A DNA stretch of 63,771 nt, taken from positions 1 through 63,771 of the forward strand of contig JBNGDF010000004.1 of assembly GCA_049975265.1 (NCBI GenBank). The letters run 5' to 3'. Below, piece after piece: positions 45,496 through 62,011 of the stretch. The notes under the pieces were generated by a model. The model did no database searches, was not told the DNA's origin, and saw only the letters and a list, made by a program, of their open reading frames with translations. Position 1 is the stretch's first letter, and every line of letters begins with the position of its first letter. The stretch is from Fidelibacterota bacterium (GTDB taxonomy: Bacteria; Fidelibacterota; UBA2242). Made by a program: the position numbers and the translations under genes.

Positions 45496-45546
45496 AACTT
45501 AAACATGACATTAATTGTTATTTTTAGATAAACTTGGGGATTGGGT

Positions 45547-46626
45547 ATGGCATTAATGGAAGTCTGTTTCGTGGACAATTCACCACTCGCCGCCTATCTC
45601 GGCGTAATATTGCGAAAACCGGATTCGGTTGTTTGGCTGCGGCGGCATGATCAGAAAAAAATCGTGAGTCAGCTGGAAAACACTCTTGCTGGACAGTTGT
45701 CAGCCAGCTACGAAAGCCGGGAAGTGAAAAACGACCTGGATGAATTTTCCGAGCAGTGCCGGAAAATTATCCGGGATTATCCCGAGCATGAAATCATTTT
45801 TAATGCCAGCGGTGGTGATCGGCTGCGTATGCTGATTGCCGCCGATATTTTCCGCAAAGCCGGGAAAGAGATTTTCTATGTGGATACGGCTCATTCGCGA
45901 CTCATCAATGTCGATTCGGAAGAGAAAAAAACCTTTCAGCTGAGCCTTACGGTCAATGAATATGCTGCTATCCACGGAGTCGAGATCGAATCGGGTGTTC
46001 GCTACGATCCGGATATCGGTAAACGCAGTGGTCTCTCCTATTTTATCGGTAACAACCTCGATGAGGTGATCCCTTTCATAGATTCCATCCGACCAGAGTG
46101 GATCAATATGGGTGAGGAAAAACAGGATATTCAATGGCGGATGAACGGACAATACCACCGCTTTGTGATCAGCTATGAAGCTGCCAGTAAAAAGATGCGT
46201 TTCCGCTTTGGTACCGAGGAAAAACCCAAAACTGTTGAGATAGCCGAAAATTGCGGTGATTTCATCTTTAACGGCGGCTGGCTGCGAGAGCTGGTCTTTT
46301 TAAGGGTTCACCGCAGCCAGTACGACGATGTGCGCATGGATATCCGTTTAAATCGGGAGTCGCTGCCGGATGGTGTGCGGGCGGAATCAATGCTGGATAT
46401 CGCTATGATGAAGGGGTGCCATTTTTATATCTTCCAATGCTTCTCCTATCCCATTACCCGCGAGTCGTTTATTGAACTAAAGGCGGTTCAGCACAGCGTC
46501 CAGCTGCTCAATGCCACCGGTTTTATCTTTCTGGCGCACCGACCACATCGTGGATTTATTGAGCGCGCCAAAGATTACGGTTTAAACATCATTTACGGGC
46601 GCCGAATTCCCAATTTTACCCTTTAG
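45547..46626 (+). CDS. Card1/Can2 (DUF1887)-like CARF domain protein with a degenerate PD-(D/E)xK nuclease domain
   Basis: CARF-like N-terminus with IIFNASGGDR...IFYVDT, linker LTVNEYAAIHG, FNGGWLRELVF, and C-terminal MLDIAMM....YIFQC. ATG 45547 follows GGGGA. Confidence 0.72.
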   Translation: MALMEVCFVDNSPLAAYLGVILRKPDSVVWLRRHDQKKIVSQLENTLAGQLSASYESREVKNDLDEFSEQCRKIIRDYPEHEIIFNASGGDRLRMLIAADIFRKAGKEIFYVDTAHSRLINVDSEEKKTFQLSLTVNEYAAIHGVEIESGVRYDPDIGKRSGLSYFIGNNLDEVIPFIDSIRPEWINMGEEKQDIQWRMNGQYHRFVISYEAASKKMRFRFGTEEKPKTVEIAENCGDFIFNGGWLRELVFLRVHRSQYDDVRMDIRLNRESLPDGVRAESMLDIAMMKGCHFYIFQCFSYPITRESFIELKAVQHSVQLLNATGFIFLAHRPHRGFIERAKDYGLNIIYGRRIPNFTL

Positions 46627-47664: not shown

Positions 47665-47880
47665 TTATGACAGGAAGCGAAAAGCGCTTTTTAGAATGTC
47701 TCTTCTGGAGGTGATGTTCACAACTTTACCGTTGTCTACAATCGGAACTCTCCGGAAGTGGTTTTTTGAGATAGCGCCGGCAATCTTTTCGATTGATGGC
47801 CAGGGAGAAAAGTAAACGACGTTTCGGTTCATCACCGTTTCAACGGTGGTGATTTTGACATACCCATCAAATATGAAATT
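47665..47880 (-). pseudogene. Single CBS-domain remnant, probably a truncated CBS-pair gene
   Basis: Hand translation of the minus strand: ...TTVETVMNRNVVYFSPWPSIEKIAGAISKNHFRRVPIVDNGKVVNITSRRDILKSAFRFLS*. The only ATG (47832) lies inside the domain, and there is no N-terminal CBS partner. Confidence 0.65.
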
Positions 47881-47917
47881 GAGAAAGCGTTTTGATATAG
47901 TCCTGACCCTCCCGGTA

Positions 47918-49777
47918 TCATTGGGTGGTGGTTAAATATTTGTGAATCCCGACGGCTGCGATTTTTGCATCGGCAATTGCGGTAACCGCATCCATATTAA
48001 TGTTGACAATATCTCCGCCTGCAAAAACCCTGGGAATGGTGGTCATGCCGTTTTCATCGACTTTTACTTTGCGTCTTTCGGTGAATTCGAGTTTTGCATG
48101 GAGCTCTTCGGGCAAAAATGAAAAATCGGCTCGTTGCCCGATGGCTTCGATAATCATCGTGCCTTCCAGAAATTGTTCCTGATCTTCGTAAAAAGTGGGA
48201 TGGAATCTTCCATGTTCATCAAAGACCGATCTAACCTTTTTGCACAGCAGCCCTTTAATAGTTCCCGCTTCATCCAGGACTACCTCTTTGGGCCCCCAGC
48301 CCGGATTGAATTCAATGCCCTCTTCCTGCGCTTCGCGGATTTCGGTTTCTGTCGCCGGCAGGTCTGCCCAATCCTCCAGGGATACCGTCCGGGTGATCAC
48401 CGTTTGACCGGGATACTGCATGTACTGCAGCCGCAACGCTTCGCGGGCTACATCCATAGCCACGTTTCCGCCGCCGATGACGATTACAGCGGGTGTCACT
48501 TTCCGGGGCTGGCCGATTTTATTGTCCTTCAAAAAATCCAGGGCGGGTTGACACTTTTCGGAATTTTTTACGTTGGTTGAAAAGCTGACCGTGTTTCCTA
48601 CGCCGAGAAAAACAGCGTCCATGGTTTTGATCAGTTCATCAAAATCGATGTCCCTACCTATCCGTGTGTTAAAATGGAAATCTACGCCCAGAGATCTGAT
48701 ATAGTTGACATCTTTATCCACCGCTTCGAGGGGAAGGCGGTAAGCAGGCGGACCGGTGCGGATCGCACCACCACCTCCGGGTAATTCATCATAAACGATA
48801 ACCTCATGTCCTTGCAATCTCAGAAAATAGGCTGACGACAAGCCACTCGGACCGGCACCGATAATCCCCACCTTTTTACCGGTCGGTTTACCGGGCCGGG
48901 CTTCCAGTGCTTCCTGAAAATTTTTAATCTGATCGGCGGCGTATCGTTTCAACCAGCGAATTGCCAGGGATTCTCCCCGGATATGAAGCGAACAGGCTTT
49001 TTCACAATGAGCCATACAGACGCGACCGCAGATAGAGGGAATCGGATTATCCTGAAAAATAATCTCCAGCGACTCTTTGGGGTTGTTGCGGTAAATCGCA
49101 TCGATGTAATCCGATATTTTCAGGTGTGCCGGACAAGCTTCTTCACATAGTTTACACCCCAGACAGCGACCGGCTTCTTTTCTGGCTTGCTCTTCGTCGT
49201 AGCCGATGACCTGTTCAATAAACGAGAGTTTCCGCACCTCAGGTTCAATCTCCGGCATACGTACACTCGTGGGCTCAAACAGAGCATAGCGCATATCCGG
49301 CGAGAATCCCTCATAATTTTCTCTTCGATGGCTCAGACTGGCTTGAAGAATGGAGTAATCAGCAGCGGATTTGTATACATCGGGTTCTGATGTTTCATCC
49401 TTCGGAACGAAAGTAAAGGTTTTCGGATCGAAATGGATGTGGAAAAAGTCCTTCGTCAGAGTTAGCGAACCGGGTGGACAAATGTCAACACACAAACCGC
49501 AGAAACAGCATCTGCCGTAATCAATCTGCGGTCTCTCGTTTTTGATACCTTTAGCGGGGTCTGCTTTGAGTTCAGCAATGGTGATCATTTCAATCGCTTT
49601 ATTGGGACAGATATCGGCACAATTTCCGCAACCGATGCATTTCGTCCAGTCATTTTTGTGAAAACCTCGGTAACGGTCGGCAATTTCTTTTGTTTCAAAG
49701 GGGTATCGGAGAGTCTGTGGCTTTTCGAACAGGTATTTTATGGCTTTGAATGGATTAATATAACTTGTCTTCGGCAT
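47918..49777 (-). CDS. Fusion of a NuoI/MbxN-like 2x[4Fe-4S] domain with a GltD/NfnL-like FAD/NAD(P)H oxidoreductase
   Basis: T.RYPFE...YRGFH, CIGCGNCADICP, CCFCGLCVDICP; then CLGC..CEEACP, CGRVC...CEKAC, GAGPSG, GGGNVAMD, FAGGDI. Start is ATG 49777. Confidence 0.9.
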   Translation of the reverse strand: MPKTSYINPFKAIKYLFEKPQTLRYPFETKEIADRYRGFHKNDWTKCIGCGNCADICPNKAIEMITIAELKADPAKGIKNERPQIDYGRCCFCGLCVDICPPGSLTLTKDFFHIHFDPKTFTFVPKDETSEPDVYKSAADYSILQASLSHRRENYEGFSPDMRYALFEPTSVRMPEIEPEVRKLSFIEQVIGYDEEQARKEAGRCLGCKLCEEACPAHLKISDYIDAIYRNNPKESLEIIFQDNPIPSICGRVCMAHCEKACSLHIRGESLAIRWLKRYAADQIKNFQEALEARPGKPTGKKVGIIGAGPSGLSSAYFLRLQGHEVIVYDELPGGGGAIRTGPPAYRLPLEAVDKDVNYIRSLGVDFHFNTRIGRDIDFDELIKTMDAVFLGVGNTVSFSTNVKNSEKCQPALDFLKDNKIGQPRKVTPAVIVIGGGNVAMDVAREALRLQYMQYPGQTVITRTVSLEDWADLPATETEIREAQEEGIEFNPGWGPKEVVLDEAGTIKGLLCKKVRSVFDEHGRFHPTFYEDQEQFLEGTMIIEAIGQRADFSFLPEELHAKLEFTERRKVKVDENGMTTIPRVFAGGDIVNINMDAVTAIADAKIAAVGIHKYLTTTQ

Positions 49778-49793
49778 GTTGAATCCTCTGTTT

Positions 49794-50894
49794 TTATCGG
49801 TCAATTTCCGGGGCGACAATATAGAGACTGATCATGATATTTCCCACATCGGAAACGCTCTCACCCACAAGTGCTTCTTCCAGCACGGTCAAGCCATGAT
49901 TGTAGGATGGTGTATTAAAATGAGCCCGATAAGGTTTATCACCGCCATCACTGACTATATAGAGTCCCAATTCTCCCCGTGAAGATTCGCACCTGACATA
50001 GGCTTCCCCCGCAGGAATATTCCACTTAAAAGGATTGGGCGTTTTGGTGTATACTTCACCGGTTTGGGGCAATTTATCGATCAGTTTAAAGATCATGTGT
50101 ACACTTTCGATCATATCGTCCCTAATCGTTAAAAGGCGTGAATAGGCATCGCCACCGGTTTGCGTCGGGATATCAAAATCCACCTGATCATAGGCGTCGT
50201 AGGGTTCGATTTTCCGAATGTCGTATTGCATACCGTTGGCTTTCAGGATGTGCCCGACGGCACCCATCCGCATGGCATCTTTCAGGGTGACGGTTCCAAT
50301 ACCTTCAGCGCGTTTTCTGAAAAGGCTGTTTTCAAAAAAGGTATTGTTATAGTCCGGGACCTTAGTGCCGATTTTGTGCAATGTTGCCACCAGCTTGTCG
50401 GTAAAGCCATCGGGGAAATCGCGTCTGACTCCGCCGGGACGCAGGTAAATATGATAGACCCGACCGCCGGTGAGTTCTTCAAACAGGTCCAGCAAGAGGT
50501 CACGGTGATACATTGCCCAGTTTGCGACGGTATCAAATCCCAGCATGTTGGCATAAGCCCAGAGTCCGAATAGATGCGATGAAACCCGCGCCATCTCACA
50601 GTAAATGCTTCGCAGAAACTTGCCCCTTTCCGGCAGCTCGATTCCCGCCAGTTTTTCCACCCCCATGGAGTAGATCAACTCCATATGATCGGGTTCCACG
50701 ACGTTTATCCGGCATACCAGGGGAAAATTTTGCATCCAGGTTCTCTGCTCCATCAGCTTTTCAAAACCACGGTGCAAAAATCCCGGATTGGCATGCGCCT
50801 TAACAATCCTGTCACCTTCCACATTCAGGGTAATACTGAAATTACCCACCATTCCGAGATGTTGGGGTCCGAAATATAACTCAAGTTCTCTCAT
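49794..50894 (-). CDS. nuoD: Complex I family large subunit (NuoD/MbxL-like) without NiFe ligands
   Basis: FGPQH, GFLHRGFEKL, EMARVSSHL, RPGGVRRD, ESSRGE, C-terminal EIDR. Confidence 0.88.
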   Translation of the reverse strand: MRELELYFGPQHLGMVGNFSITLNVEGDRIVKAHANPGFLHRGFEKLMEQRTWMQNFPLVCRINVVEPDHMELIYSMGVEKLAGIELPERGKFLRSIYCEMARVSSHLFGLWAYANMLGFDTVANWAMYHRDLLLDLFEELTGGRVYHIYLRPGGVRRDFPDGFTDKLVATLHKIGTKVPDYNNTFFENSLFRKRAEGIGTVTLKDAMRMGAVGHILKANGMQYDIRKIEPYDAYDQVDFDIPTQTGGDAYSRLLTIRDDMIESVHMIFKLIDKLPQTGEVYTKTPNPFKWNIPAGEAYVRCESSRGELGLYIVSDGGDKPYRAHFNTPSYNHGLTVLEEALVGESVSDVGNIMISLYIVAPEIDR

Positions 50895-51414
50895 TATCGC
50901 CCTTTTTTCTTGCTTCTATCGAGGGAATTTTTCCGAATGTGTTCTGGACATAATTATCAAGATTAAAATCTTTCCTGAAAGGCGGAATTGCATAATCCCG
51001 TTCAAGCATTAATGGCTTCAGGCGCGGGTGCCCTTCAAAGCGAATTCCAAACATTTCATGAATTTCACGTTCATAGGGCTCGGCGCTCTCGAAAAGATCG
51101 ATGATTGTAATAAATTTTGCTGTTTTTCGGGATATTCGGGTTTTGATTAGGATATTGGCTTTTTGGTTTATCTCACTTTCCACAGGGTTGCGGTGTAAAT
51201 AGGGAGAAACGATGTAAATCAGCTCAAACTCATCGGCGTCGATCCAATCATTGCAGGAAATCATGGCTAAGTGATTATAGCCCCTTTTTTTCAGATAACT
51301 TAAGAGGGATAATACACCTTCCTTTTGTATCTCGATCAGCATTCTGTCCTCGCTGGGAATGCAAATGACAATATCGGTGAAAATTGAGGTGAGCTGTTGC
51401 TTCAATTCTTGCAT
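50881..51414 (-). CDS. nuoC: Complex I family 30 kDa subunit (NuoC/MbxK-like)
   Basis: YEREIHEMFGIRFEGHP, PPFRKDF. Confidence 0.9.
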   Translation of the reverse strand: MQELKQQLTSIFTDIVICIPSEDRMLIEIQKEGVLSLLSYLKKRGYNHLAMISCNDWIDADEFELIYIVSPYLHRNPVESEINQKANILIKTRISRKTAKFITIIDLFESAEPYEREIHEMFGIRFEGHPRLKPLMLERDYAIPPFRKDFNLDNYVQNTFGKIPSIEARKKGDNERT

Positions 51415-51445
51415 ACCAAATCCTTATAGTAACAATTCGCAGGGC

Positions 51446-52000
51446 TCACGGTTGATGACATTCAAAAAGAGGCGGCCAGCCGAGGTCGCCGAACAGTTGC
51501 TCCTGATTTGCCCGGTAATGACGATAATCTGCCCGATATCGTTTGTAGCCGTCAGCTTTGTCCAGATCAATCAATTTCCAGAGATGGGTCACACCGATAA
51601 AAACGGCTTCCGGTCGGGGCATGCAACCGGCGATATAACCATCTATGGGGATATATTTGTCCAGCTGTTTAATGGTATTGTAGGAATCGTAATACATACC
51701 GCCGTTGATCGGGCAGGACCCGAACGCCACCGTGTACTTCGGTTCTGGCATCTGCTCGTAGGTCCGGATGATGGCTTTCAGCGTCTTGGTTGAGACATAA
51801 CCGGTGATAAGAAACAGATTTGCCTGGCGCGGCGTTGCCACCGGTATGATGCCGAAACGCTCTGCATCCCAGCGGGTGGTGATGGACGGCGGAATCTCGA
51901 TAATTCCGCAACCGGTACAAAAATAGACCACATGGAAGGAGTACTTGTTCGCCATTTTGCCGGGATTTTTGAGCCATTTACCTAATTGATTTCGATCCAT
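51446..52000 (-). CDS. nuoB: Complex I family Fe-S small subunit (NuoB/MbxJ-like)
   Basis: FCTGCG.IE, DAERFG, TPRQA, YEQMPEPKY, GSCPINGG, GCMPRPE. Confidence 0.92.
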   Translation of the reverse strand: MDRNQLGKWLKNPGKMANKYSFHVVYFCTGCGIIEIPPSITTRWDAERFGIIPVATPRQANLFLITGYVSTKTLKAIIRTYEQMPEPKYTVAFGSCPINGGMYYDSYNTIKQLDKYIPIDGYIAGCMPRPEAVFIGVTHLWKLIDLDKADGYKRYRADYRHYRANQEQLFGDLGWPPLFECHQP

Positions 52001-52019
52001 ATTGGTATTTTCCTTTTTT

Positions 52020-52970
52020 CTATTGAATCAGTACCACTATGAGCAGACCTGTAAAGGCGATCAATGTCGGCCATTTCCATAAATATTGCATTGCCTGCTC
52101 AATCCTGAAGCGGGGGTAGACGGCATTGATGAATAGTCCGACTATCAGGACAATCAGCATTTTTAACAGAAAGATGACAATTCCGGCGACCACCGCCCAT
52201 GGGCTTCCTGCAATGGGATTCAGCCAGCCGAACAGGTGACTTCCGCCCAGAAAAATGTCTACAAAAAGTGCCAGCCCGACAAACATGTGCAGGGCATGCT
52301 GCAATGTATAAAGCGCCAGATGTTTTCCGCCAAACTCGGCAATCGGACCCGAAGAAATTTCCTGTGGAGCGCTGACGATTTCAAAGGGTCTCACTCCCAG
52401 AATCGCCGGCAGAATCAGAAAATAGGCGATACCCGGCAGAATCAGCGCCCATGAGCTGAAAGCCCATCCGGAACTTGCCTGAATTTTGACGATTTCCACG
52501 AATGAGATTGTATTGTAATGAGTCATTACGGCAATCAGGACTAAAAGCAGGGGCACTTCATACGCCAAGGAGAGGAGAAATTTTCGTGATATTCCAATGC
52601 TTGAATTGGGGTTAGCTGACGCTCCGGCACTCAGTGCTATTCCCAGAGGATCCAGCAGCAAAAGATAGATAAAGGCGATCAGTCCTCCTGAGGTGAATAA
52701 ACACAGTTCCCCTATTGGCAGAAACAGGATTAGAACGAAATATCCGCTTAAGGACAAAATTATTCCAAAATCGAATAATGCACCGTGGGTAATGCTCATT
52801 TGACTGAACGAGCGGATGATATCTATAATCGGCTGAGTAATCGGCGGTCCGTAGCGCCAGTGAATTCTGGCGGTAATTTTTCTGGAAATTCCCAGAAAAA
52901 AAAGCCCGGTAATCAGAGATAACAGCGTTAAGATCAAACCGATGAGTAGATTCATTAAAAAATACCCCAT
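52020..52970 (-). CDS. nuoH: Complex I family membrane subunit (NuoH/MbxM-like)
   Basis: RKITARIH.R.GPP..QP..D, YEVP, RPFEI..APQEI..G...EFGG, PRFRIEQ. Confidence 0.9.
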   Translation of the reverse strand: MGYFLMNLLIGLILTLLSLITGLFFLGISRKITARIHWRYGPPITQPIIDIIRSFSQMSITHGALFDFGIILSLSGYFVLILFLPIGELCLFTSGGLIAFIYLLLLDPLGIALSAGASANPNSSIGISRKFLLSLAYEVPLLLVLIAVMTHYNTISFVEIVKIQASSGWAFSSWALILPGIAYFLILPAILGVRPFEIVSAPQEISSGPIAEFGGKHLALYTLQHALHMFVGLALFVDIFLGGSHLFGWLNPIAGSPWAVVAGIVIFLLKMLIVLIVGLFINAVYPRFRIEQAMQYLWKWPTLIAFTGLLIVVLIQ

Positions 52971-54802
52971 TTTAATTGAATTGAGATGAGCAATGCCAAA
53001 AACAGGAGAATGTACATAACATAATTACTGACATTTCCGGTATAAATCCGTCTGACACTCTCACAGGTACTTTGAGTCCATTCCACCAATTTCAGATAAA
53101 AAGCATCCACGAAATCCTTGAGATAGGGACGTATCATGCGGTCCAGAGGGCGATAAAAAGCTACCGTATAATTATATTTTTCCTTCGGTACTGCTAAACC
53201 AGCGGCATAATTATCATATTGGTCAACCCTGGTCGCCTTACGCGCTCCCTTAAAAATCAGCCAGACGACTGCTACGGCGATAAAGATCGCCATAAAAATA
53301 TTGATTGTGTTCAGGGATTCGACTCCTCCCAGGGAAACATTCAGTGATTCAAAGCCTAAATAAACTCCAATGACATTAATCATTTTTAGAGCAATGCCCG
53401 GGAGAATTCCAAATAATAAAACCATCGCTGTCAATACGATTATGGGTAATTGCATTGTCAAGGGCACCTCTTTTACGTTTTTGTGTTCCTCGGGCAATTG
53501 TCCCAGAAATATGTTGTGGATAAATTTGAATCCGTACAGGATTGTTCCCCAGGTACCGAGAAATGCAGCAAAAGCCAGAAACGGGCGTTGATTCAAGATC
53601 AGGGCTTTATATATCAGCCATTTGGAAACGAAACCATTTGTCAGAGGTGCGCCGATCAAGCCCAGTATTCCCACCAGTCCACCGATAAAAGTGACCGGCA
53701 TCTTGTGCATTAATCCACCCAATGAATTGATGTCCCGGATACCGCCGGTACTGTATTCTATCGCACCTGCTACGAAGAAGAGCAGTCCAATGTAAATGCA
53801 GTGATTCAGAATATGGAAAGTTCCGCCCGCCATGCCCAGCGCTGTCGCCGAAGCGACTCCTAAAATCATATAACCACCCTGTCCCACGGTACTCCAGGCA
53901 AGAATCCTTTTCGAATCGTTTTGCAACAGAGCTGTCAACGCCGCGAAGACGATGGTAATCGCGCCAATCCAGCAAAAAATGCTGTTATAACTGATCCATC
54001 CTAACGATAATTTATTTAAGACATTGATTCCCAATATCATGTACATAAATAGATAGAGACCATACATTCCTTTTCGCACCAGGACGGCTGAGAGGATTGA
54101 CGAAAACGGTGAGACGGCTTCGGCATGCGCATCCGGCAACCAGGTGTGGGCGGGCCAGAAAGCATTGATAATTGTAAAGGATATTGAAAACAGAATTAAG
54201 ATAAAAAGCGTGTACTGAACAGAAGCGCCCTGAATCAGCTCTGCCAGAGCGGTAATCTCGACCGTTCCAAAGTGAGTATATAAACTGATAATGCCCACGA
54301 GCATTGCCAGGGATCCGATAATGGACATAATGATATATTTTATTCCGGCAAACAGCGCCTTATTTCCACCTTTATAACTAATTAATAGATATGTACTCCA
54401 GCTCATCATTTCCCAGAAGATGAAAAATGAGATTAGATCACCGCAGAGCACCGTTCCCAGCATGCTGGCGTTGATGAATAGGGTCGTAAAGTAGTAGTAA
54501 TCCAATTTATCTTCGTTTTCAATATATCTTATAGAGTAGATGATCGACAATAAACCGATACCAACAATGGTAATTGCAAAGAACCATGAGACCATATTTA
54601 TTCGGATTACAAATTCCAAACCCAGGAAACCGAAAGGAAGGGATTTTTCAATATCCTGACCATAGAAAAATGAGGTCAATATCACCAGCGCCAGGGCATT
54701 CAGAACGGCAATCCAATTCCTGAGTTTGGATGATATTTTCCCGGCAAAATAGATGAGGAATGCACCGCCGAAAGCCACACTAATCAGTAATTCTAAACTC
54801 AT
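52955..54802 (-). CDS. Antiporter-like proton-translocating subunit (MrpA/D-type, MbxH'-like)
   Basis: FFIFWEMMS, HTWLPDAHAEA.SP.S, KRILAWST, GFVSKW. Confidence 0.88.
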   Translation of the reverse strand: MSLELLISVAFGGAFLIYFAGKISSKLRNWIAVLNALALVILTSFFYGQDIEKSLPFGFLGLEFVIRINMVSWFFAITIVGIGLLSIIYSIRYIENEDKLDYYYFTTLFINASMLGTVLCGDLISFFIFWEMMSWSTYLLISYKGGNKALFAGIKYIIMSIIGSLAMLVGIISLYTHFGTVEITALAELIQGASVQYTLFILILFSISFTIINAFWPAHTWLPDAHAEAVSPFSSILSAVLVRKGMYGLYLFMYMILGINVLNKLSLGWISYNSIFCWIGAITIVFAALTALLQNDSKRILAWSTVGQGGYMILGVASATALGMAGGTFHILNHCIYIGLLFFVAGAIEYSTGGIRDINSLGGLMHKMPVTFIGGLVGILGLIGAPLTNGFVSKWLIYKALILNQRPFLAFAAFLGTWGTILYGFKFIHNIFLGQLPEEHKNVKEVPLTMQLPIIVLTAMVLLFGILPGIALKMINVIGVYLGFESLNVSLGGVESLNTINIFMAIFIAVAVVWLIFKGARKATRVDQYDNYAAGLAVPKEKYNYTVAFYRPLDRMIRPYLKDFVDAFYLKLVEWTQSTCESVRRIYTGNVSNYVMYILLFLALLISIQLKWGIF

Positions 54803-56271
54803 CCCAATACACTCCTTATATATTTTGCCTGATCGAGCAATTCGGAAGCCGCTGGGGTTAGTATTTTCGCAATGAAATTCGGAAACATTCCAATGAATAT
54901 GATCAAGCCTGCAAGAATAACCATTGGAATCAGAGCGGAAATGGGAGATTCACACTTTTCTTCAATTTTCCGAGTTCCTTTAAAATATATGAGCTGGATC
55001 AGTTTGAAGAAGTAGCCTCCTTCGATGACTGTTCCCAATAGTACAATTCCAATCAGTATCAGAAAAAGTAATTCTCCTTTGGCAAGCGAGGCACGGATGA
55101 TCATAAATTTGCTGGCAAAACCGGTAAATGGTGGTAACCCGACAATCGAAAAGGCACCGATTGTAAAAAATAGAGCGGTCAATGGCATTTTTTTGCCAAT
55201 ACCTTCGAATGACGATATTTCCATTGAACCGGTCCGAAAAATCATGTATCCGGCACACAAGAACAGCAGGGCTTTGCTCAGTGTATGACTGATCATCTGG
55301 AAAAGTCCTCCCGCTATTCCGAATTGAGTGGAGATTGAAAAAGCAAAAAGGATCAGACCGATCTGCCCGATACTGGAATAAGCCAGCATGCGTTTGATAT
55401 TATTTTGGGCAAATGCGCTCATTTCCCCAATCAAGATGGTCAGTACTCCCAAAACCATAAAAAACATGAAAAAGTTTGATACAGCAAATATTGTAAACAG
55501 GACACGGATTACCGCGTACAGACCCACTTCGATTGCAATACCAGAGAGAATAGCACTGACGGAGGAAGGGGCTGACGAGTGTGCATCGGGGAGCCAGGCG
55601 TTCAGCGGAAATATCGCCGCTTCGATTCCCAGTCCCGTTATCATTAATGCCATCGGAATGAATAATGATGAATCGGACGCTGAGACAATCTGCCTTGCGA
55701 GGTCTGCCATATTCAATGTTCCGAACTGACCGTAAAGCAGACCGATTCCCACCAGCAGCAGGCTGGATCCAATGGAGCCCTGGATGAGATATTTTACCGC
55801 CGATTCGAGACCAGCGCGATTACCCAGATAGGCAACCAGAGCATAAGAGGAAATACAGAGAATCTCGAAAAAGACGAAAAGATTAAATATGTCGCCTGTC
55901 AGCACAACTCCGGTGGCGCCGGTTAACAGCAGTAAAAACAGGATGTGGTATTTCTGTTGGGCGCCTTCCCGTATATATCTCAGAGCGTAAATGGCAACGA
56001 GCAGTCCGGTAAGGGCGATCAAGGTTGCCATCAGCATTCCCACTGGTCCGGCGACGAGGTTGATTCCAAAAGGCGGCGCGAAACCGGCGGTGATGACCAC
56101 AATCGGTTTTTTCAACGCCTGGGGTAGAATTATCAATGCGATGATGAGGTTGACAAAAAAACCGATGACGGGCAACCATTTGACGATTTTTTTCAAAAAG
56201 AGCCCCACAAGCGGGGTTAAAAATGCCAGCCCCAGAGGAACCGCAAGGAGGAGTACCGGATTAATGGTCAT
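54799..56271 (-). CDS. mnhD: Antiporter-like subunit MrpD/MnhD (MbxH-like)
   Basis: DIFNLFVFFEI, WLPDAHSSAPS, KRMLAYSSIGQIG, GLPPFTGFASK. Confidence 0.88.
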   Translation of the reverse strand: MTINPVLLLAVPLGLAFLTPLVGLFLKKIVKWLPVIGFFVNLIIALIILPQALKKPIVVITAGFAPPFGINLVAGPVGMLMATLIALTGLLVAIYALRYIREGAQQKYHILFLLLLTGATGVVLTGDIFNLFVFFEILCISSYALVAYLGNRAGLESAVKYLIQGSIGSSLLLVGIGLLYGQFGTLNMADLARQIVSASDSSLFIPMALMITGLGIEAAIFPLNAWLPDAHSSAPSSVSAILSGIAIEVGLYAVIRVLFTIFAVSNFFMFFMVLGVLTILIGEMSAFAQNNIKRMLAYSSIGQIGLILFAFSISTQFGIAGGLFQMISHTLSKALLFLCAGYMIFRTGSMEISSFEGIGKKMPLTALFFTIGAFSIVGLPPFTGFASKFMIIRASLAKGELLFLILIGIVLLGTVIEGGYFFKLIQLIYFKGTRKIEEKCESPISALIPMVILAGLIIFIGMFPNFIAKILTPAASELLDQAKYIRSVLG

Positions 56272-56337
56272 GATTTCTCTCGCTTACTATTATCTTGTTG
56301 ACAATAATGATAATTCTTCTTTTCAAAAAAGGAATCG

Positions 56338-56697
56338 CTACCACTTTTGCTCTCTTATATTGCGTAAATTGAGAGTTCCGAAATGATCGTACAGTCGAAT
56401 TGCCAGCGATAGAGCCAGTCCCATTACAGCGAGTCCAATGACGATTGCTGTCAGTACCAAAGCCTGGGGAACCGGATCGACCATTTTTTCGGCAAGTACG
56501 CCCGGCTCTGAAAAAATCGGAGCGGTCCCGTCTTTCAGGTAGCCGATGGAAATAAGGAAAAGATTGACACCCGTTTCAAGAATACTTAGTCCGATAATAA
56601 TCTTGATATAATTCTGCCTGATTGCCATTATGAAAAGACCGATCAGGATCAAACCGAAGGCACCAATATAGTAGATATAATTGTGTAAAAAAGTCAT
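56338..56697 (-). CDS. mnhC: Na+/H+ antiporter subunit C (MbxG-like)
   Basis: DPVPQALVLTAIVIG signature. Confidence 0.9.
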   Translation of the reverse strand: MTFLHNYIYYIGAFGLILIGLFIMAIRQNYIKIIIGLSILETGVNLFLISIGYLKDGTAPIFSEPGVLAEKMVDPVPQALVLTAIVIGLAVMGLALSLAIRLYDHFGTLNLRNIREQKW

Positions 56698-57383
56698 CAG
56701 CTCTCCTCCATCAACAGGTCGATAATTTTGCTTAATTCCGCACCTACCTTGAATCCAATGGCGATATAGATGAGCGGAATGATTCCGGCGCTGATAAGGG
56801 TGTTGAATTCGCCTTTGGGTAAAAAATTATTCAGAAAATGACCGGAGCCGATTACCAGACCCATTAGCCCAGTACAGAGAAATACCAATCCGCTAAGAGA
56901 TTCGGCGAGAACACTGCCGGTTTCCCCGATTCGCTTTTCCTGATGGCATCCGAGATACATCAGAACAAATGCCGAGGCGATTACCGCACCGCCCTGGAAT
57001 CCTCCGCCGGGAGTCAAATGCCCGTGAATAAATATATAGGCACCATACAGCAGAATCAGCGGAAACAGAAATTTGCAGCCAGTGGTGAGAATCATGCTGG
57101 CTTTTTCGAGTTTTCGCGGTGTCCTTCTCTGAATAGTGGCCAGTACAGTGCCCAGACCGATGGTAGCCAGAAACAAAACCGTTACTTCTCCCAGGGTATC
57201 CAGACCGCGGTAACTGACTACCACCGAGGTCACAATATTGGCTGCGCCGGTGTCCTCTCTACCCTTACTGATATATTGATCCGCCAGTTTTGTTTGAGAG
57301 ACACCGAATGGAATATGTTGCAGTGACGAAGAGATACCCCATGCAATGATGATCAATAAGATGGCGATGATTAGTTTTCTCAT
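56697..57383 (-). CDS. mnhB: Na+/H+ antiporter subunit B (MbhE/F-type fusion)
   Basis: NIVTSVVVSYRGLDTLGE and HGHLTPGGGFQGG. True start is ATG 57383 (MRKLIIAILL). Confidence 0.9.
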   Translation of the reverse strand: MRKLIIAILLIIIAWGISSSLQHIPFGVSQTKLADQYISKGREDTGAANIVTSVVVSYRGLDTLGEVTVLFLATIGLGTVLATIQRRTPRKLEKASMILTTGCKFLFPLILLYGAYIFIHGHLTPGGGFQGGAVIASAFVLMYLGCHQEKRIGETGSVLAESLSGLVFLCTGLMGLVIGSGHFLNNFLPKGEFNTLISAGIIPLIYIAIGFKVGAELSKIIDLLMEES

Positions 57384-57619
57384 TCTTCGATCCTCGTTGT
57401 TCGTCGGATTGCTATCACAAACACCGCTGTTACCAGCGCCGCCCCGATAGACGCCTCCGCCATCGCAACGTCCGGCGCATGTAACAGAAAAAAGAGTACC
57501 GCCGCAATGAGGCTGACCATGCAGGCTGCAATTATGGCGCTTAACAGGTCTTTCAAGAAGTAGGCTGTAATTGCTGACGCCAGCATGGCAATTATCAGTA
57601 AAGTTACAAAGATGATCAT
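57380..57619 (-). CDS. MnhB-related small subunit (DUF4040, MbhD/MbxD-like)
   Basis: APDVAMAEA.IGA motif; 3 TM segments. Confidence 0.88.
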   Translation of the reverse strand: MIIFVTLLIIAMLASAITAYFLKDLLSAIIAACMVSLIAAVLFFLLHAPDVAMAEASIGAALVTAVFVIAIRRTTRIEE

Positions 57620-57945
57620 GACTCTTTCCTTTGTTCAAATTCCCCGCTCAAGTCCACCACGCTTTTATCGCATAACGGGACGCCGCTTTTTTTTGAGGCG
57701 CGGGCAATGGCGTGACTTGAAATGGGATTGGTCACCAGCACAAAGACCGCGATCAGCAGGCATTTCCAGAACCATTCCGGCTGCATGATTCCGATTCCGA
57801 TAATGGAAAAAAATGTTCCAAAAGTGGTGCATTTTGTGCCCGCCTGAATCCGATTGTATACATCGGGCAGGCGCAGAATCCCGAAATTACCAAGCAGTAG
57901 AAATAGCACCCCGATGCCCGTCATAATGAGTCCCAATAGTTCCAT
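57616..57945 (-). CDS. mnhG: Na+/H+ antiporter subunit G (MbxC-like)
   Basis: RLPDVYNRIQAGTK..T.G, TNPISSHAIARA. Start is ATG 57945. Confidence 0.9.
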   Translation of the reverse strand: MELLGLIMTGIGVLFLLLGNFGILRLPDVYNRIQAGTKCTTFGTFFSIIGIGIMQPEWFWKCLLIAVFVLVTNPISSHAIARASKKSGVPLCDKSVVDLSGEFEQRKES

Positions 57946-57946
57946 A

Positions 57947-58207
57947 TCAAAATCCCTTTTCCATATAACGTGCAATCGCGCACAAGCCGACAAAGGCAAG
58001 CAGCGAATAGACCAGTGAAACGTCGAGGTAAATATAACGTTTGAATAAATAAGCCAGCAGAACCAGCAACGCCACAGTGGTTGTGGTAATCGTATCCACT
58101 GCCACGGCGCGGTCGGAAGCCGTCGGACCGATAATCATTCGGATCAGACTCAATAAGAGCCCCGCCATGATAATAAATAAAAAGACAACAAAGATCTGTT
58201 CATTCAT
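57947..58207 (-). CDS. mnhF: Na+/H+ antiporter subunit F (MbxB-like)
   Basis: R.IIGPT.SDRAVAVD, YLDVSLVY.LL.FVG...IARY. Confidence 0.9.
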   Translation of the reverse strand: MNEQIFVVFLFIIMAGLLLSLIRMIIGPTASDRAVAVDTITTTTVALLVLLAYLFKRYIYLDVSLVYSLLAFVGLCAIARYMEKGF

Positions 58208-58716
58208 GCGAATACCACCTGTAAATATTTTTCAAATCTCTCCCCGATCGCCCTGGTAGAGTCTGCCTTGCTCTGCGCTTTGACGTTAATCCAGTGAATC
58301 AGCAGCTCATCATCTCTGATATCGAGGGTAAAGGTACCGGGCGTCAAGGTGATGGAATTAGCCAGCAGCATTTTAGCAATATCCTGCTTTAATCCCGTTT
58401 TAATGATGACAATGCCCGGATTAATAGGCATTTTGGGGTGAAGTACCCGGTATGCCACGTCAAAATTGGCTTTGACAATCTCTTTCAGCAAAACCAGAAG
58501 GAACATGACGAAGTATGCAATTCGCTTTATTCCAATGGGAGGCAGCCCCAGTTTTTGATAGTTTTGGTTTAGGACCAGTGCCAGCACGAGACTGATTGCA
58601 ATCCCGGTTATCAACTCTGCGCTTTGCAAAGTATTGGTTAACACCATCCAGATGATGAACAGAAGGAAAAAGAGATAGAGAAAATTTCTCAACTTCGTAA
58701 AGGAATTATCCGCCAT
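58204..58716 (-). CDS. mnhE: Na+/H+ antiporter subunit E (MbxA-like)
   Basis: ANFDVA, LANSITLTPGT, LLIHWI. Confidence 0.92.
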   Translation of the reverse strand: MADNSFTKLRNFLYLFFLLFIIWMVLTNTLQSAELITGIAISLVLALVLNQNYQKLGLPPIGIKRIAYFVMFLLVLLKEIVKANFDVAYRVLHPKMPINPGIVIIKTGLKQDIAKMLLANSITLTPGTFTLDIRDDELLIHWINVKAQSKADSTRAIGERFEKYLQVVFA

Positions 58717-58784: not shown

Positions 58785-59414
58785 TTAGAGATTGTTATGA
58801 GAATAGTAAATGAGCCTGGTTAATTCAGTACTCAGATCGATGCATTTGACCTCAATATTTTTCGGCATATTTATCAGACAGGGCGAAAAAGACAGAATAG
58901 CATTGATGCCCATTTCGGCGAGGTCTTTGGCTACCTCGCCCGTAACAGAGATCGGGGTTGCCAGAATACAGATTTTGATGTTTTCTTTCTTAATGAACTC
59001 TCCGGCATTGACTATATCCTGAATCGTCACCCCGTTAATTTCCGTACCGATTTTTTCCGGATTGTTATCAAAGGCTGCCACGATCTGAATACCTTCGGAG
59101 GGAAAACTGGAATAGGAGAGCAGTGCTCGGCCGATATTGCCCACACCAACCAGAATGACCTTTTTGATTTTTTGGATTTTTAGAATGTTACGGATTGTCG
59201 CGAGCAGTTCATCCACGTCATAACCGATGCCGCGCTTTCCGAATTCGCCAAAATAAGAGAGGTCTTTGCGGATAATGGAGGGATTGATGTTACACAGTTC
59301 TGCCAGGCGGTTTGAGGAGACGATTTTGGATTTTTTTTCGGCGAGGCAGATCAGCGCCCTGAGATATGGGAAAAGGCGGCTGATTGTTTCGTCGGGTATC
59401 GGTTTGGTTCTCAA
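58785..59414 (-). CDS. rex: Redox-sensing transcriptional repressor Rex
   Basis: IP..TI.RL..Y, IRKDLSYFGEFGKRGIGY, VGVGNIG.AL, AFD..P.KIG. TTG 59414 is the preferred start because GTG 59441 lies inside the operator at the predicted +1. Confidence 0.95.
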   Translation of the reverse strand: MRTKPIPDETISRLFPYLRALICLAEKKSKIVSSNRLAELCNINPSIIRKDLSYFGEFGKRGIGYDVDELLATIRNILKIQKIKKVILVGVGNIGRALLSYSSFPSEGIQIVAAFDNNPEKIGTEINGVTIQDIVNAGEFIKKENIKICILATPISVTGEVAKDLAEMGINAILSFSPCLINMPKNIEVKCIDLSTELTRLIYYSHNNL

Positions 59415-59425
59415 TGTCGTTCTCT

Positions 59426-59443
59426 TTGTGATTGTGTTCACAA
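59426..59443. promoter_or_regulatory. Rex operator
   Basis: TTGTGA-TTGTGT-TCACAA matches the TTGTGA-N6-TCACAA consensus and lies immediately downstream of the predicted rex promoter. Confidence 0.85.
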
Positions 59444-59451
59444 TCCACTAT

Positions 59452-59480
59452 AGCATAATGAAAATTTTTTGGGATTTCAA
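59452..59480 (-). promoter_or_regulatory. Sigma70 promoter of the rex-mbx operon
   Basis: Minus strand reads TTGAAA-17 bp-TATGCT. Confidence 0.6.
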
Positions 59481-59509
59481 GAAATATTTTTCTTGTGACC
59501 AATAAATTG

Positions 59510-59560
59510 TTGCATTTTGAACATATGTGCGTTATATTTGTTATGAACTTATGTTCATTA
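59510..59560 (+). promoter_or_regulatory. Sigma70 promoter of the DUF134 cluster with two related palindromic boxes
   Basis: TTGCAT(59510)-17 bp-TATATT(59533). Boxes TTTTGAACATATGTGCGTTA (59515-59534) and TTATGAACTTATGTTCATTA (59541-59560). Confidence 0.6.
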
Positions 59561-59575
59561 TTAAAGGAAAACTCA

Positions 59576-60055
59576 ATGCCAAGACCACAAAAAGAGAGAA
59601 AAGTACTTGAACCGCCCAAAATCCAGGGACTGAAACCGGTGGGCGTGCCTGCGCGGTTTCTGGAGCGCATCTATCTGACGGTAGTTGAATATGAAGCCAT
59701 TCGTCTGGCGGATTACGATGGACTCGACCATCAGAAAGCGGCGGAGATTATGGGTGTGTCGCGTCCTACTTTTACCCGTCTGATCGAGAAAGCCCGTCGC
59801 AAGGTAGCCGATTCTATTGTCGGTGTTAAGGAGCTGGTTATAGAGGGTGGAACCTATTCCTTTGCCACGCACCTGCAACGCTGTATGGATTGTGGTGAGT
59901 TTGTCCGTTTCCAATCTCCTAAGCAGATGGCGACTGTTTGCAGCGCCTGTGGTTCGTCCAATATTGTCCATTTGAATGAATGGTTCGGCAGGCGCGGTGG
60001 TCCGGGTTTTGGCAGGCGGGGTGGTTTTCGGAGAGGTCATGGCTATCAAAGATAA
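59576..60055 (+). CDS. DUF134 (UPF0251) HTH protein with a C-terminal zinc ribbon and Gly/Arg-rich tail
   Basis: MPRP.K.RKV, EYEAIRLADY.GL....AA..MGVSRPTF.R....AR.KVA, IEGG, CMDC...CSAC. Start is ATG 59576. Confidence 0.9.
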   Translation: MPRPQKERKVLEPPKIQGLKPVGVPARFLERIYLTVVEYEAIRLADYDGLDHQKAAEIMGVSRPTFTRLIEKARRKVADSIVGVKELVIEGGTYSFATHLQRCMDCGEFVRFQSPKQMATVCSACGSSNIVHLNEWFGRRGGPGFGRRGGFRRGHGYQR

Positions 60056-60766: not shown

Positions 60767-62011
60767 ATGTACGCATACGGTCCGGTTCCCTCCAGACGAT
60801 TGGGACGACCCATCGGCGTCAGTCCGATTCCGCCCAAGGTCTGCTCCTATTCCTGTGTCTATTGCCAACTGGGACGAACCTCAAAGTTACAGGTGAAGCG
60901 GCAGCGCTTTTTTCCGAAAGAGGAGATCCTGCAGGATATAAGAAGGGTGATGAGTTCGGAAACTGCCGACGTAATCACCTTTGTCGGTGATGGTGAGCCG
61001 ACTCTTTGCAGCGATTTGGGGTGGCTCATACAGAAGGCGAAGCAGGAATTTGGTTTGCCAACGGCTGTTATTACCAACGGATCGCTGCTGTTTCACAGTG
61101 ATATTCAGTCCGAACTGCTGGCGGCGGATATTGTAATTCCCACGCTGGATGCCGGCAATCCGATGGTTTTCAGGGAGATCAACCGTCCCCACCGCGCGGT
61201 GGAATTTTACAAAATGGTGACCGGGCTGGCAGATTTTCGACGACAATATGACGGACAATTCTGGTTGGAAGTGATGCTGGTGAAAAACCTTAATGATTCC
61301 GATGAACAGCTAACAATGATCCAAAATGTCGTGAAGGAGATTCAGCCGGAAAAGGTGTTTGTAATGACACCGATCCGTCCGCCGGCTGAGATCTGGGTCA
61401 AAAGCCCCGATCCGGAACGGGTTCAGGTAGCCCAGCAGATGCTGGTGAATGCTGTAACCGTGGCAAACCCGGAAGACGGCGAGTTCGGAATTACGGAATT
61501 TGCCAATGCCACTGAGGCGATTCTGGAAATCTCGGCCCGGCATCCATTACGAATGGATCAGGCGAAAAAAATTGAACAAAAATTTGCCGAAGACGGAACT
61601 GTCGAGCGACTGCTCCGGGAAAATCAAATTACCCTGAATCGCTACCATCACGTCGATTACATTCGCCTGGTGCGGTTACAGGCCAAATCAGGAAAAAAGG
61701 CAAGACGGTCTGTAGAACTTGCCATTAAGCGGATCAATTGTTGTACCTTTCGGATTACTGTCGATTCAGAGGTGCAGAAGCGGCAATATCGTGTGATTCT
61801 CGGGGATGCGTATTACAACAATCTGGCAAGGGGGAAGATGAGCAAGGAGCATCTGCTGGAGTACTGTTTTCGCTACTTTGCGGATAATCAGTTGCTGGAT
61901 CAACTGGAGCCGAAATTTATACTCAGAAATGTTTGTCGAGAGCATCCCGAATTTGAAAAAGGAATTCATGCGATCATTAACGCCGGGAGGAATACAGACG
62001 ATGCGAATTAA
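60767..62011 (+). CDS. Radical SAM protein (COG0731/TYW1-related) with a C-terminal extra domain
   Basis: YGPVPSRRLG, CSYSCVYC, GDGEPTL, ITNGSL, EVMLV..LND, PIRPPAE. Confidence 0.9.
   Translation: MYAYGPVPSRRLGRPIGVSPIPPKVCSYSCVYCQLGRTSKLQVKRQRFFPKEEILQDIRRVMSSETADVITFVGDGEPTLCSDLGWLIQKAKQEFGLPTAVITNGSLLFHSDIQSELLAADIVIPTLDAGNPMVFREINRPHRAVEFYKMVTGLADFRRQYDGQFWLEVMLVKNLNDSDEQLTMIQNVVKEIQPEKVFVMTPIRPPAEIWVKSPDPERVQVAQQMLVNAVTVANPEDGEFGITEFANATEAILEISARHPLRMDQAKKIEQKFAEDGTVERLLRENQITLNRYHHVDYIRLVRLQAKSGKKARRSVELAIKRINCCTFRITVDSEVQKRQYRVILGDAYYNNLARGKMSKEHLLEYCFRYFADNQLLDQLEPKFILRNVCREHPEFEKGIHAIINAGRNTDDAN

Follow-up and report, generated by a model that had tools for sequence, protein, structure and literature searches.

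What does the 13-gene operon on the minus strand of a 63,771-nucleotide stretch of Fidelibacterota DNA (GenBank assembly GCA_049975265.1, contig JBNGDF010000004.1, positions 1 to 63,771; the whole stretch is called the window below) encode, and from which donor to which acceptor would its product pass electrons? Running from 58716 to 47918, the genes are tightly packed in one direction, in the order MnhE-F-G, MbhD, MbhE/MnhB, MnhC, two antiporter-like subunits, NuoH-B-C-D-like subunits and, last, a NuoI-GltD fusion. Our reading, to which we give a probability of roughly 50%, is that the locus encodes a Rex-repressed 13-subunit complex of the MBS/Mbx type (MBS standing for the membrane-bound reductase of sulfane sulfur), in which NADH would give up electrons that reach sulfane sulfur by way of FAD and five [4Fe-4S] clusters, with the export of Na+ or H+ coupled to this transfer. 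Judged by sequence comparison, the acceptor-side core (J, L, M and H') and the Mrp-like arm are close homologues of the sulfane-sulfur reductase of Pyrococcus furiosus, the electron-input subunit, N, is covalently joined to an FAD/NAD(P)H module that has two more predicted [4Fe-4S] sites, and the gene of a predicted NADH/NAD+-sensing repressor, together with a putative operator, heads the operon. The initial annotation of the locus, made from the DNA letters, had described 13 genes with DUF4040 ahead of the B-type subunit, mostly overlapping stop and start codons, an MBX/MBS layout and a NuoI(MbsN)-GltD fusion as the last gene. Gene number and order were correct (our own count of 12 was wrong), 9 of the 12 junctions overlap by longest open reading frame (ORF) calls with D and E split (8 of 12 if N starts at Met15), the layout is borne out by both gene order and subunit scores, and the fusion is confirmed as being of the GltD/NfnB type.

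Placement relative to characterised MBS was based on bit scores against structures in the PDB and on one printed alignment. For all seven subunits compared (L, J, the N-terminal domain of the fusion, H', M and E, and H by way of NCBIfam), the MBS of P. furiosus (PDB 6U8Y) was the nearest solved relative, with wide margins. L scored 343.6 bits over its full length, against 245.3 for complex I, 123.3 for MbhL (from membrane-bound hydrogenase, MBH) and 85.8 for formate hydrogenlyase, while J scored 228.1 bits (NDH-K 124.8, MbhJ 112.2), M 241 bits (MbhM 85, ND1/NdhA homologues 45-58) and E 194.6 bits (MbhF 68.8). The first 110 residues compared in the fusion (17-126) gave 108.7 bits with 6u8y_N and 56.3 with Nqo9. 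H', with 615 aa against 618 aa in MbsH', matched its counterpart end to end (6-608 / 8-616; 234.4 bits, MbhH 185.5), and the best NCBIfam match of H was NF006241. In MbsH' it is the lateral helix and TM15-16 that supply loop 1. The residues around the predicted active site point the same way. PMC7684303 describes the MBS J motif as three residues shorter than that of MBH, with a proximal catalytic cluster held by three cysteines, the first Cys of the MbsJ CxxC not being a ligand of that cluster. The window J has the CxxC...C...C pattern and aligns without gaps to the P. furiosus chain across FCTGCGIIEIPP / FCTGCGGIEMPP, the motif being identical in length and nearly so in sequence, and it shows three gap columns (three residues fewer) against the Mbh J of its own genome. 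In L, the four columns that hold the nickel-iron (NiFe) cysteines of hydrogenases are occupied by N64 and E67 (RxCGxC pair) and by V360 and E363 (DPCxxC pair), none of them Cys, and the catalytic Glu of MbhL is also missing. The columns that we assign, by motif, to the complex I quinone residues His38 and Tyr87 hold V16 and V65.

A tree of L supports this separation from other families. It was built with FastTree (LG+gamma) from 154 L-type sequences and 377 columns, with the NiFe clade as root. Into it went 138 of the best 150 representatives at 50% identity (12 of under 330 aa being dropped), 4 named cluster members, the window L, 5 type-1 and 3 type-2 sequences (clades defined below), the Mbh L of the C20 cluster and of the related locus L008, and the Ehr-like L homologue of the C10 cluster. 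As its sister, the window clade (support 1.0) has a paralogous clade of the same phylum (0.89), and both fall within a 29-leaf group (0.93) that lacks the quinone Tyr and stands apart from the Nuo (His...Asp-Tyr signature), Fpo and NiFe clades. Of the comparison with MBH, MBS, Nuo, Fpo and Ehr that had been proposed with the initial annotation, the separation from Nuo, Fpo and NiFe enzymes is provided by the tree; named Thermococcales and Thermotoga sequences, P. furiosus MbsL among them, are not in it.

The electron-input side is one point at which the operon departs from the archaeal enzyme. The fusion protein holds two ferredoxin-type 4Fe-4S motifs, a Fer4_20 domain and a Pyr_redox_2 FAD/NAD(P) domain (8+8 Cys), with both Fer4_20 Cys quartets and both Rossmann motifs intact. 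Because these quartets and motifs are present, a wire is predicted that would lead from FAD over two [4Fe-4S] clusters in the GltD domain and two in the MbsN domain to the proximal cluster in J. The solved proteins closest to residues ~185-630 were 9bov_A (240.6 bits), 9n5u_A (233.2), 5jca_L (228.5), 4ylf_B (223.8), 8oh5_C (213.8) and 5vj7_A (209.6), whereas small subunits of glutamate synthase reached 152-162 bits and dihydropyrimidine dehydrogenase 127. After the second Rossmann strand all five of the best solved homologues carry Y-R-R; in the window T-R-T stands there, with an insertion of four residues after it, and the middle position of this motif is R, K, M or N within its clade. The Arg pair of YRR presumably binds the 2'-phosphate of NADPH. 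Since the YRR of the solved NfnB-type homologues has been lost in this clade, NADH is probably preferred over NADPH.

The upstream region would tie the operon to the same pyridine nucleotide. The rex gene, whose start was inferred from comparison with the related locus L002, ends 68 bases upstream of gene A on the same strand. An TTGTGAnnnnnnTCACAA-type inverted repeat reading TTGTGATTGTGTTCACAA lies ~12 bp ahead of the likely rex start, with a single mismatch to the Rex consensus; it is the sole site with at most one mismatch in the 2.86-Mb genome (0.52 expected by composition), and 1 of 300 shuffles of the 271-bp upstream stretch contained as good a match. Equivalent boxes stand at the same position in L002, L005, L022 and L025. 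A rex gene and a candidate operator in the promoter region, either of which would assign an operon to the Rex regulon at the sequence level, are both present. According to PMC8836258, Rex sits on DNA with NAD+ and is released upon NADH binding, so that the operon should be expressed as NADH accumulates. Divergent from rex are a DUF134 / zinc-ribbon helix-turn-helix gene (59495-60055, plus strand) and, beyond it, a gene for a radical-SAM enzyme (60767-62011, plus strand).

Relatives of the operon are widespread. Of 7998 candidates scored against the fusion, 5732 proteins reached E<=1e-20; the 120 best clusters show 68-95% identity over 88-99% of the query and stem from metagenome-assembled genomes (MAGs) labelled Bacteroidota, Marinimicrobia, Atribacteria and others. 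In a same-phylum sample of 201 genomes, the window's own included, a full-length fusion match (E<=1e-100) was found in 29; carriers made up 14 of the 141 high-quality genomes and 11 of the 78 genera, and seven genomes had two copies. Altogether 28 distinct operon loci were compared (L021 being a duplicate of L005), with clades set by identity of the fusion to that of the window, and the 13-gene order was kept in all of them that are long enough to reveal it. Type 1 (13 loci, window included) has fusions 69-100% identical to that of the window, no YRR, FCTGCG in J and an invariant VNVEVE signature in L; the underlying residues V16/N64/V65/E67/V360/E363 were found in 13 of 13 loci and the J motif in 12, being cut off in L026. 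In type 2a (42-45%) the corresponding stretch reads TSLE[ST]E, again without YRR, and in type 2b (38-41%; 6 loci) it reads LYRRRE. Wherever J can be seen in the two type-2 clades (15 of 15 subunits; L017-L019, L027-L040), Gly takes the place of the motif's first Cys, which lends support from natural variation to the published view that the first Cys is not a ligand. The most conserved subunits are J, L and M, with 80-93% identity among type-1 operons. A rubrerythrin gene follows the fusion gene in type 2 (L017-L019) and is absent from that place in the window.

Of the 21 operons for which the upstream region can be seen, 12 have a co-directional rex gene directly upstream of gene A, at a distance of 48-175 bp: 5 of 8 in type 1, 7 of 9 in type 2a and 0 of 4 in type 2b. 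Counted by motif, the gene is found at the head of 12 of the 17 operons that lack YRR and of 0 of the 4 that carry it. This association within the phylum is suggestive, and the prediction from it is that the clades with Rex are fed by NADH and the one without by NADPH. In each of the five rex-headed type-1 operons, a box with no more than 2 mismatches lies within 35 bp of the rex start (matched by 0-1 of 300 shuffles). Within 2 mismatches, a canonical 4-spacer Rex box was not found in the type-2a operons, in three of which a 24-bp TTGTGAA-N10-TTCACAA palindrome occurs instead. This perfect or near-perfect palindrome, TTGTGAAAGTTATAACTTTCACAA, lies upstream of rex (L018:2957, L028:14115, L030:12879) and consists of Rex half-sites spaced by 10 nt rather than 4 nt; it may be a variant Rex operator.

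Links to sulfur come from the relatives and from published expression data. The L008 operon, from a MAG labelled Ca. Celaenobacter antarcticus, has a gene of the CoA-disulfide/persulfide-reductase (CoADR) family, 456 aa in length, inserted between mbxA and mbxB (L008:301-1671, plus strand). Its product has Pyr_redox_2 (1.4e-61) and Pyr_redox_dim domains and an IPCGIPY active-site stretch; among solved structures it is closest to NoxA-3, a CoA-persulfide reductase and the CoADR of Pyrococcus horikoshii, and it scored 250 bits against TIGR03385, which is under the cut-off. A homologue with 45% identity is found in the window's genome at C4:88871-90136, ~30 kb off and outside the window, and a fragment of a Pyr_redox_dim-bearing gene lies upstream of the operon in L009. 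Elemental sulfur (S0) raised mbxA of Thermotoga maritima 4.36-fold (PMC9431562), and induced 10 of 13 MBS genes in the bacterial isolate 3DAC (PMC10356935).

The inventory of rnf, quinone-biosynthesis and hydrogenase-maturase genes that had been suggested with the initial annotation gave this result: three RnfD/NqrB-family genes and a MenA-like gene are present, MqnA was not found, and HycI occurs in the C20 cluster. The 95.3%-complete genome yielded no Psr-type polysulfide reductase (NrfD), and its inventory no canonical Nuo. A true Mrp-linked group-4 [NiFe] hydrogenase, with RICGIC and DPCYCC motifs and the HycI protease, is encoded outside the window at C20:8198-20437 (L015), and an equivalent Mbh cluster lies directly downstream of the mbx operon in L008; a second NiFe large subunit and one FeFe hydrogenase were also found. 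The C20 cluster is headed by an AsrA-like Fer4_22 protein and an AsrB/NfnA-like FAD/NAD/[2Fe-2S] protein, so that this hydrogenase, too, may have a pyridine-nucleotide port. A single c subunit of an ATP synthase was found (C21:29162-29341; 140 aa, a four-helix V-type proteolipid). It has LTQ, FQG and VET residues, presumably the pattern by which the K ring of Enterococcus hirae binds Na+, and this would suggest bioenergetics based on Na+. A very divergent cluster outside the window (C10:55062-62756, L016) encodes a 367-aa homologue of the 49-kDa subunit, which is 21% identical to L and has none of the residues that mark NiFe, MBS or Nuo proteins, together with one antiporter-like subunit and four proteins that matched nothing in Pfam, with a large sensor kinase and a sigma-54 activator upstream; it may be an Ehr-type complex.

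Put together, the proposed mechanism would run as follows. A rising NADH/NAD+ ratio would take Rex off its operator, and NADH would be oxidised at the FAD of the fused module. Single electrons would then travel over the pair of clusters in the GltD domain and the pair in the MbsN domain to the three-Cys proximal cluster in J. There, in a hydrophobic chamber formed by J, L and M, they would reduce an S-S bond in polysulfide or in some other sulfane-sulfur species, and the small free energy would be spent on exporting Na+ (or H+) by way of H, H' and the Mrp module. For the cell this would mean a respiratory outlet for its NADH in sulfidic sediment, beside its RnfD/NqrB-family complexes, Mbh-type cluster and hydrogenase homologues.

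Several points weigh against this reading. Oxidation of NADH by polysulfide yields only ~50-60 mV under standard conditions, which would make ion pumping marginal. MBH, for comparison, conserves 12 kJ per 2e- (PMC8165549), which is of the same order as our estimate. A literature search found no measured activity for any fused bacterial complex. The window itself holds nothing specific to sulfur, the links coming from 2 of the 28 related operons and from other organisms, and mbx of Mesotoga is weakly expressed on thiosulfate (10.1101/322537). The vestigial MbsL cysteines C85 and C385 are gone, being replaced by N64 and V360 in the window and likewise in all 13 type-1 operons; since mutants in these residues stay active (PMC7684303), the cysteines being dispensable in vitro, the feature is descriptive rather than functional. 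The role of YRR in 2'-phosphate binding is itself a presumed one. The adjacent rex gene indicates NADH-responsive control and says nothing on the direction of electron flow; moreover, 9 of 21 operons lack it, and the association of Rex with the missing YRR is suggestive rather than statistical because the three clades represent only three evolutionary events. Finally, the MenA-like gene of this genome exceeds its cut-off, which keeps a quinone conceivable on inventory grounds.

This last point leads to the most serious of the alternatives, which we consider unlikely: the same NAD(P)H input and ion pumping, with an acceptor at J, L and M other than polysulfide, such as menaquinone, a CoA persulfide-type organic persulfide, thiosulfate-derived sulfur or an unknown lipophile. 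Besides MenA, the three RnfD/NqrB-family genes and the invariant type-1 L signature (13 of 13), which deviates from MbsL at both retained cysteines, would fit such an acceptor, and among the matches of the CoADR-family neighbour in L008 is a CoA-persulfide reductase. For a quinone in particular, the Val residues at the assigned Tyr and His positions, the MBS-type CxxC of J in place of the complex I CC, the failure to find MqnA in the genome and the much closer kinship of the pocket subunits to MBS than to any quinone reductase all speak against it, and with neither the CC motif nor the quinone Tyr/His the complex is not a complex I. It is doubtful, too, that the complex acts as an Rnf-like ferredoxin:NAD(P)+ oxidoreductase, with ferredoxin docking on the MbsN domain, electrons leaving through the flavoprotein and the membrane arm pumping. 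This role, considered in the initial annotation, is the older Mbx hypothesis, advanced in PMC4758237 and, for Mesotoga, in 10.1101/322537; the flavin domain does resemble NfnB/NfnL, which link NADP(H) and ferredoxin, and subunit N is the entry point of ferredoxin electrons in MBS and MBH according to PMC7684303. The same paper places energy coupling in this family in the chemistry at the proximal cluster and in a three-loop chamber, yet a route from ferredoxin through N to FAD would skip both, even though J, L and M are the most conserved subunits. Three RnfD/NqrB-family genes are already in the genome, and an NADH-producing enzyme would be an odd target for a repressor released by NADH, as Rex is (PMC8836258). 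The Rnf-like proposal is therefore weakened by the repressor, the co-resident genes and the conserved acceptor pocket alike.

Ion-coupled bifurcation or confurcation, in which the NfnB-type FAD would split or merge electrons between the sulfur wire and ferredoxin or another docking protein, appears very improbable. The initial annotation had raised it on account of an NfnL-type flavin domain, and that domain is indeed nearer to the NfnB/StnC type than to GltD proper, its best solved relatives all being Nfn-type subunits or their large fused kin (209-241 bits), above GltD and dihydropyrimidine dehydrogenase. The search for a partner speaks against the proposal: no NfnA-like or other [2Fe-2S]/FAD gene stands beside any of the 28 distinct operon loci, the NfnA-like genes of the genome sitting away from the operon. 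Nor would bifurcation be required for the downhill step from NADH to sulfane sulfur, and GltD-type modules work as plain two-to-one electron converters. A wider version, likewise very improbable, would make this the first membrane-bound ion-translocating bifurcating or confurcating complex, with ferredoxin docking on the surface of MbsN and the flavin, and would link NAD(P)H, ferredoxin and sulfur pools to a Na+ gradient, the Rex-controlled NADH-type and the YRR-bearing NADPH-type clades serving different pools. A membrane-bound group 4 [NiFe] hydrogenase with an Mrp module, finally, is how related Cloacimonadota MAGs have been annotated (PMC8542988 lists a 'Group 4g NiFe hydrogenase linked to Mrp' for Ca. 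Celaenobacter), and L has a weak NiFeSe-family match at its N-terminus (E about 6e-06). This reading is refuted by the sequence: with N, E, V and E in the four NiFe columns all four cysteines are missing, and the C-terminus of L reads EIDR, with no DPCxxC. The genome's real group-4 enzyme is the separate C20 cluster, and L008 carries its Mbh cluster in addition to the mbx operon. NADH-driven reduction of sulfane sulfur by an MBS-type complex thus remains the reading that we prefer.

The individual features are listed in Table 1. Chance matches are not a concern, since all Pfam E-values lie between 1e-8 and 1e-70. The longest ORF of the fusion is probably over-long: full-length homologues mostly measure 613-635 aa, which suggests a start at Met15 and a protein of 619 aa. 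The 12-gene reading, in which D and E formed a single ORF of 313 aa, was rejected as an over-extended ORF call. That ORF is not hydrophobic over its first 85 residues, Pfam places the MbhD gene in a different frame, and residues 88-312 align to residues 3-231 of MbsE (6u8y_E); all 22 related loci covering this part have an MbhD gene between C and E. Directly after the fusion gene, a small intact CBS-pair gene is found in L001, L002, L003, L008, L018 and L019. The window has its C-terminal half, with no start codon available for the N-terminal half, probably a decaying accessory gene. Further along, at 45541-46626 (plus strand), the window encodes a Card1-like protein with CARF and endonuclease domains (CARF_Card1 4.3e-07, Card1_endonuc 2.3e-06), which adjoins an EamA transporter and has a homologue at the same position in L002.

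Table 1. Features of the mbx-type operon and its flanks in the window, with Pfam E-values and other matches (bit scores against 6u8y chains are given in the text)
Feature	Coordinates	Strand	Matches
Sigma-70-like promoter match TTGAAA-17-TATGCT, just upstream of the Rex box	59452-59480	-	consensus match only, 9/12
Candidate Rex operator, inverted repeat	59426-59443		1 mismatch to consensus
rex, predicted redox-sensing repressor; likely true start TTG at 59414	58785-59441	-	Put_DNA-bind_N 7.2e-15, CoA_binding 1.1e-16
A, MbsA-like (MnhE)	58204-58716	-	PF01899, 1.3e-42
B, MbsB-like (MnhF)	57947-58207	-	PF04066, 3.1e-18
C, MbsC-like (MnhG)	57616-57999	-	PF03334, 2.5e-25
D, MbsD-like (MbhD/DUF4040), 79 aa	57380-57619	-	PF13244, 4.8e-18
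E, MbsE-like (MbhE + MnhB domains), 228 aa	56697-57383	-	PF04039, 1.2e-25; PF20501, 1.2e-08
G, MbsG-like (MnhC / NuoK-like, chain 4L)	56338-56697	-	PF00420, 6.3e-24
H, MbsH-like antiporter-like subunit, 490 aa	54799-56271	-	PF00361, 2e-65; NF006241, 465.7 bits
H', MbsH'-like antiporter-like subunit with C-terminal extension	52955-54802	-	3e-57; 6u8y_X
M, MbsM-like (NuoH-like membrane anchor)	52020-52970	-	4.9e-56; 6u8y_M
J, MbsJ-like (NuoB-like, predicted proximal [4Fe-4S])	51446-52000	-	2.3e-22; 6u8y_J
K, MbsK-like (NuoC-like)	50881-51414	-	PF00329, 3.3e-29
L, MbsL-like (NuoD-like), no NiFe cysteine	49794-50894	-	5.8e-70; 6u8y_L
N-GltD fusion, longest ORF 633 aa	47918-49819	-	Fer4; Fer4_20, 1.5e-26; Pyr_redox_2, 4.2e-24
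CBS-pair gene remnant, C-terminal half only	47671-47931	-	tblastn with the L002 CBS protein: 49% identity, residues 40-128

The initial annotation had put the operon forward as the strongest candidate for an undescribed energy-conserving system in its lineage, naming a nesting of its subunits within characterised MBS or Nuo of the same activity as an outcome that would speak against this. MBS is the nearest solved relative of all seven subunits compared, and the claim is weakened further by the publication of the architecture (PMC4758237), by the existence of the NF010590 model and by the many phyla represented among the closest clusters of homologues. The remark in the initial annotation that GltD-linked versions occur in Thermotogae and are poorly characterised agrees with PMC4758237 and PMC9431562. 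The architecture is therefore known from Thermotoga and many uncultured bacteria, and the window is a further member. In the literature on related genomes, 'mbx' and 'mbs' have 0 occurrences in PMC8542988 and 'mrp' has 0 in PMC12590816 (both on Cloacimonadota genomics), and the description of Fidelibacter (PMC11652737) is silent on the complex. What is newly added here is the structure of three clades within one phylum, the Rex/YRR pattern and the insertion of a CoADR-family gene in one operon. Among uncultured anaerobes, MBS-type complexes into which a pyridine-nucleotide port is built are common. If the proposed mechanism holds, they would be a sulfur-based functional analogue of complex I (NADH in, sulfane sulfur reduced, Na+ out), energy-yield models for fermenters in sulfidic sediments would change, and the finding would bear on how complex I gained its NADH input; the link between Rex and YRR provides a concrete, testable prediction of donor specificity.

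Compared with known systems, the operon shares with complex I (Nuo) and Fpo its homologues of NuoH, B, C, D, I, K and L/M/N, and the window L passes the NuoD cut-off of NF004739 (405.6 vs 360). Unlike Nuo and Fpo, it lacks NuoE/F/G, has CxxC instead of CC in the B subunit and no equivalents of Tyr87/His38, possesses an Mrp-type distal membrane module (MnhE, F, G and B) and falls in a separate clade of the L tree. The Mrp-linked architecture is common to MBH and group 4 [NiFe] hydrogenases, the genome's own on C20 included, whereas the window lacks the NiFe ligands and HycI, shows only one antiporter-like duplication pattern and is distant from MbhL (123 bits). The flavin module resembles NfnB/NfnL (4YLF_B, 5JCA_L), which in NADH-dependent ferredoxin:NADP+ oxidoreductase is the large subunit, and fused StnC-like proteins (8OH5_C, 9BOV_A) in the order of Fer4_20 with 2x[4Fe-4S], FAD and NAD(P) Rossmann domains over ~410-445 residues, and differs in having T-R-T and an insertion in place of YRR and in being fused to a subunit of a membrane complex; the NfnAB bifurcating transhydrogenase combines such a module with NfnA (NfnS), of which the window and the related operons have no neighbouring counterpart.

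Another known system is the Thermotoga-type 'mbx-like' operon, which PMC4758237 and PMC9431562 present with a gltD-related flavoprotein and as uncharacterised; it has the same combination of Mrp subunits, NuoHBCD-like subunits and N-GltD fusion. The NCBIfam model for the fusion is NF010590 (PRK13984, 'putative oxidoreductase', an equivalog model). The window fusion matches that model over its full length (14-631 / 5-608 of 611) with 683.8 bits, under the cut-off of 946, while the type-2 fusions score 724-897 bits, so that the seeds of the model are closer to these paralogous clades, which, unlike the window, have the rubrerythrin neighbour. From the MBS of P. furiosus, the window complex differs in the ~450-aa C-terminal fusion that replaces the last 90 residues of MbsN, in an L without the equivalents of the vestigial C85 and C385, in control by Rex rather than the archaeal SurR, in its bacterial, probably mesophilic host and in its donor, which is probably NADH rather than ferredoxin. 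It has in common with that enzyme the 13 subunit types in an identical gene order (A-B-C-D-E-G-H-H'-M-J-K-L-N), the shortened CxxC motif of J, an L with neither NiFe site nor quinone Tyr/His, and an H' that is matched from end to end, its C-terminal extension included.

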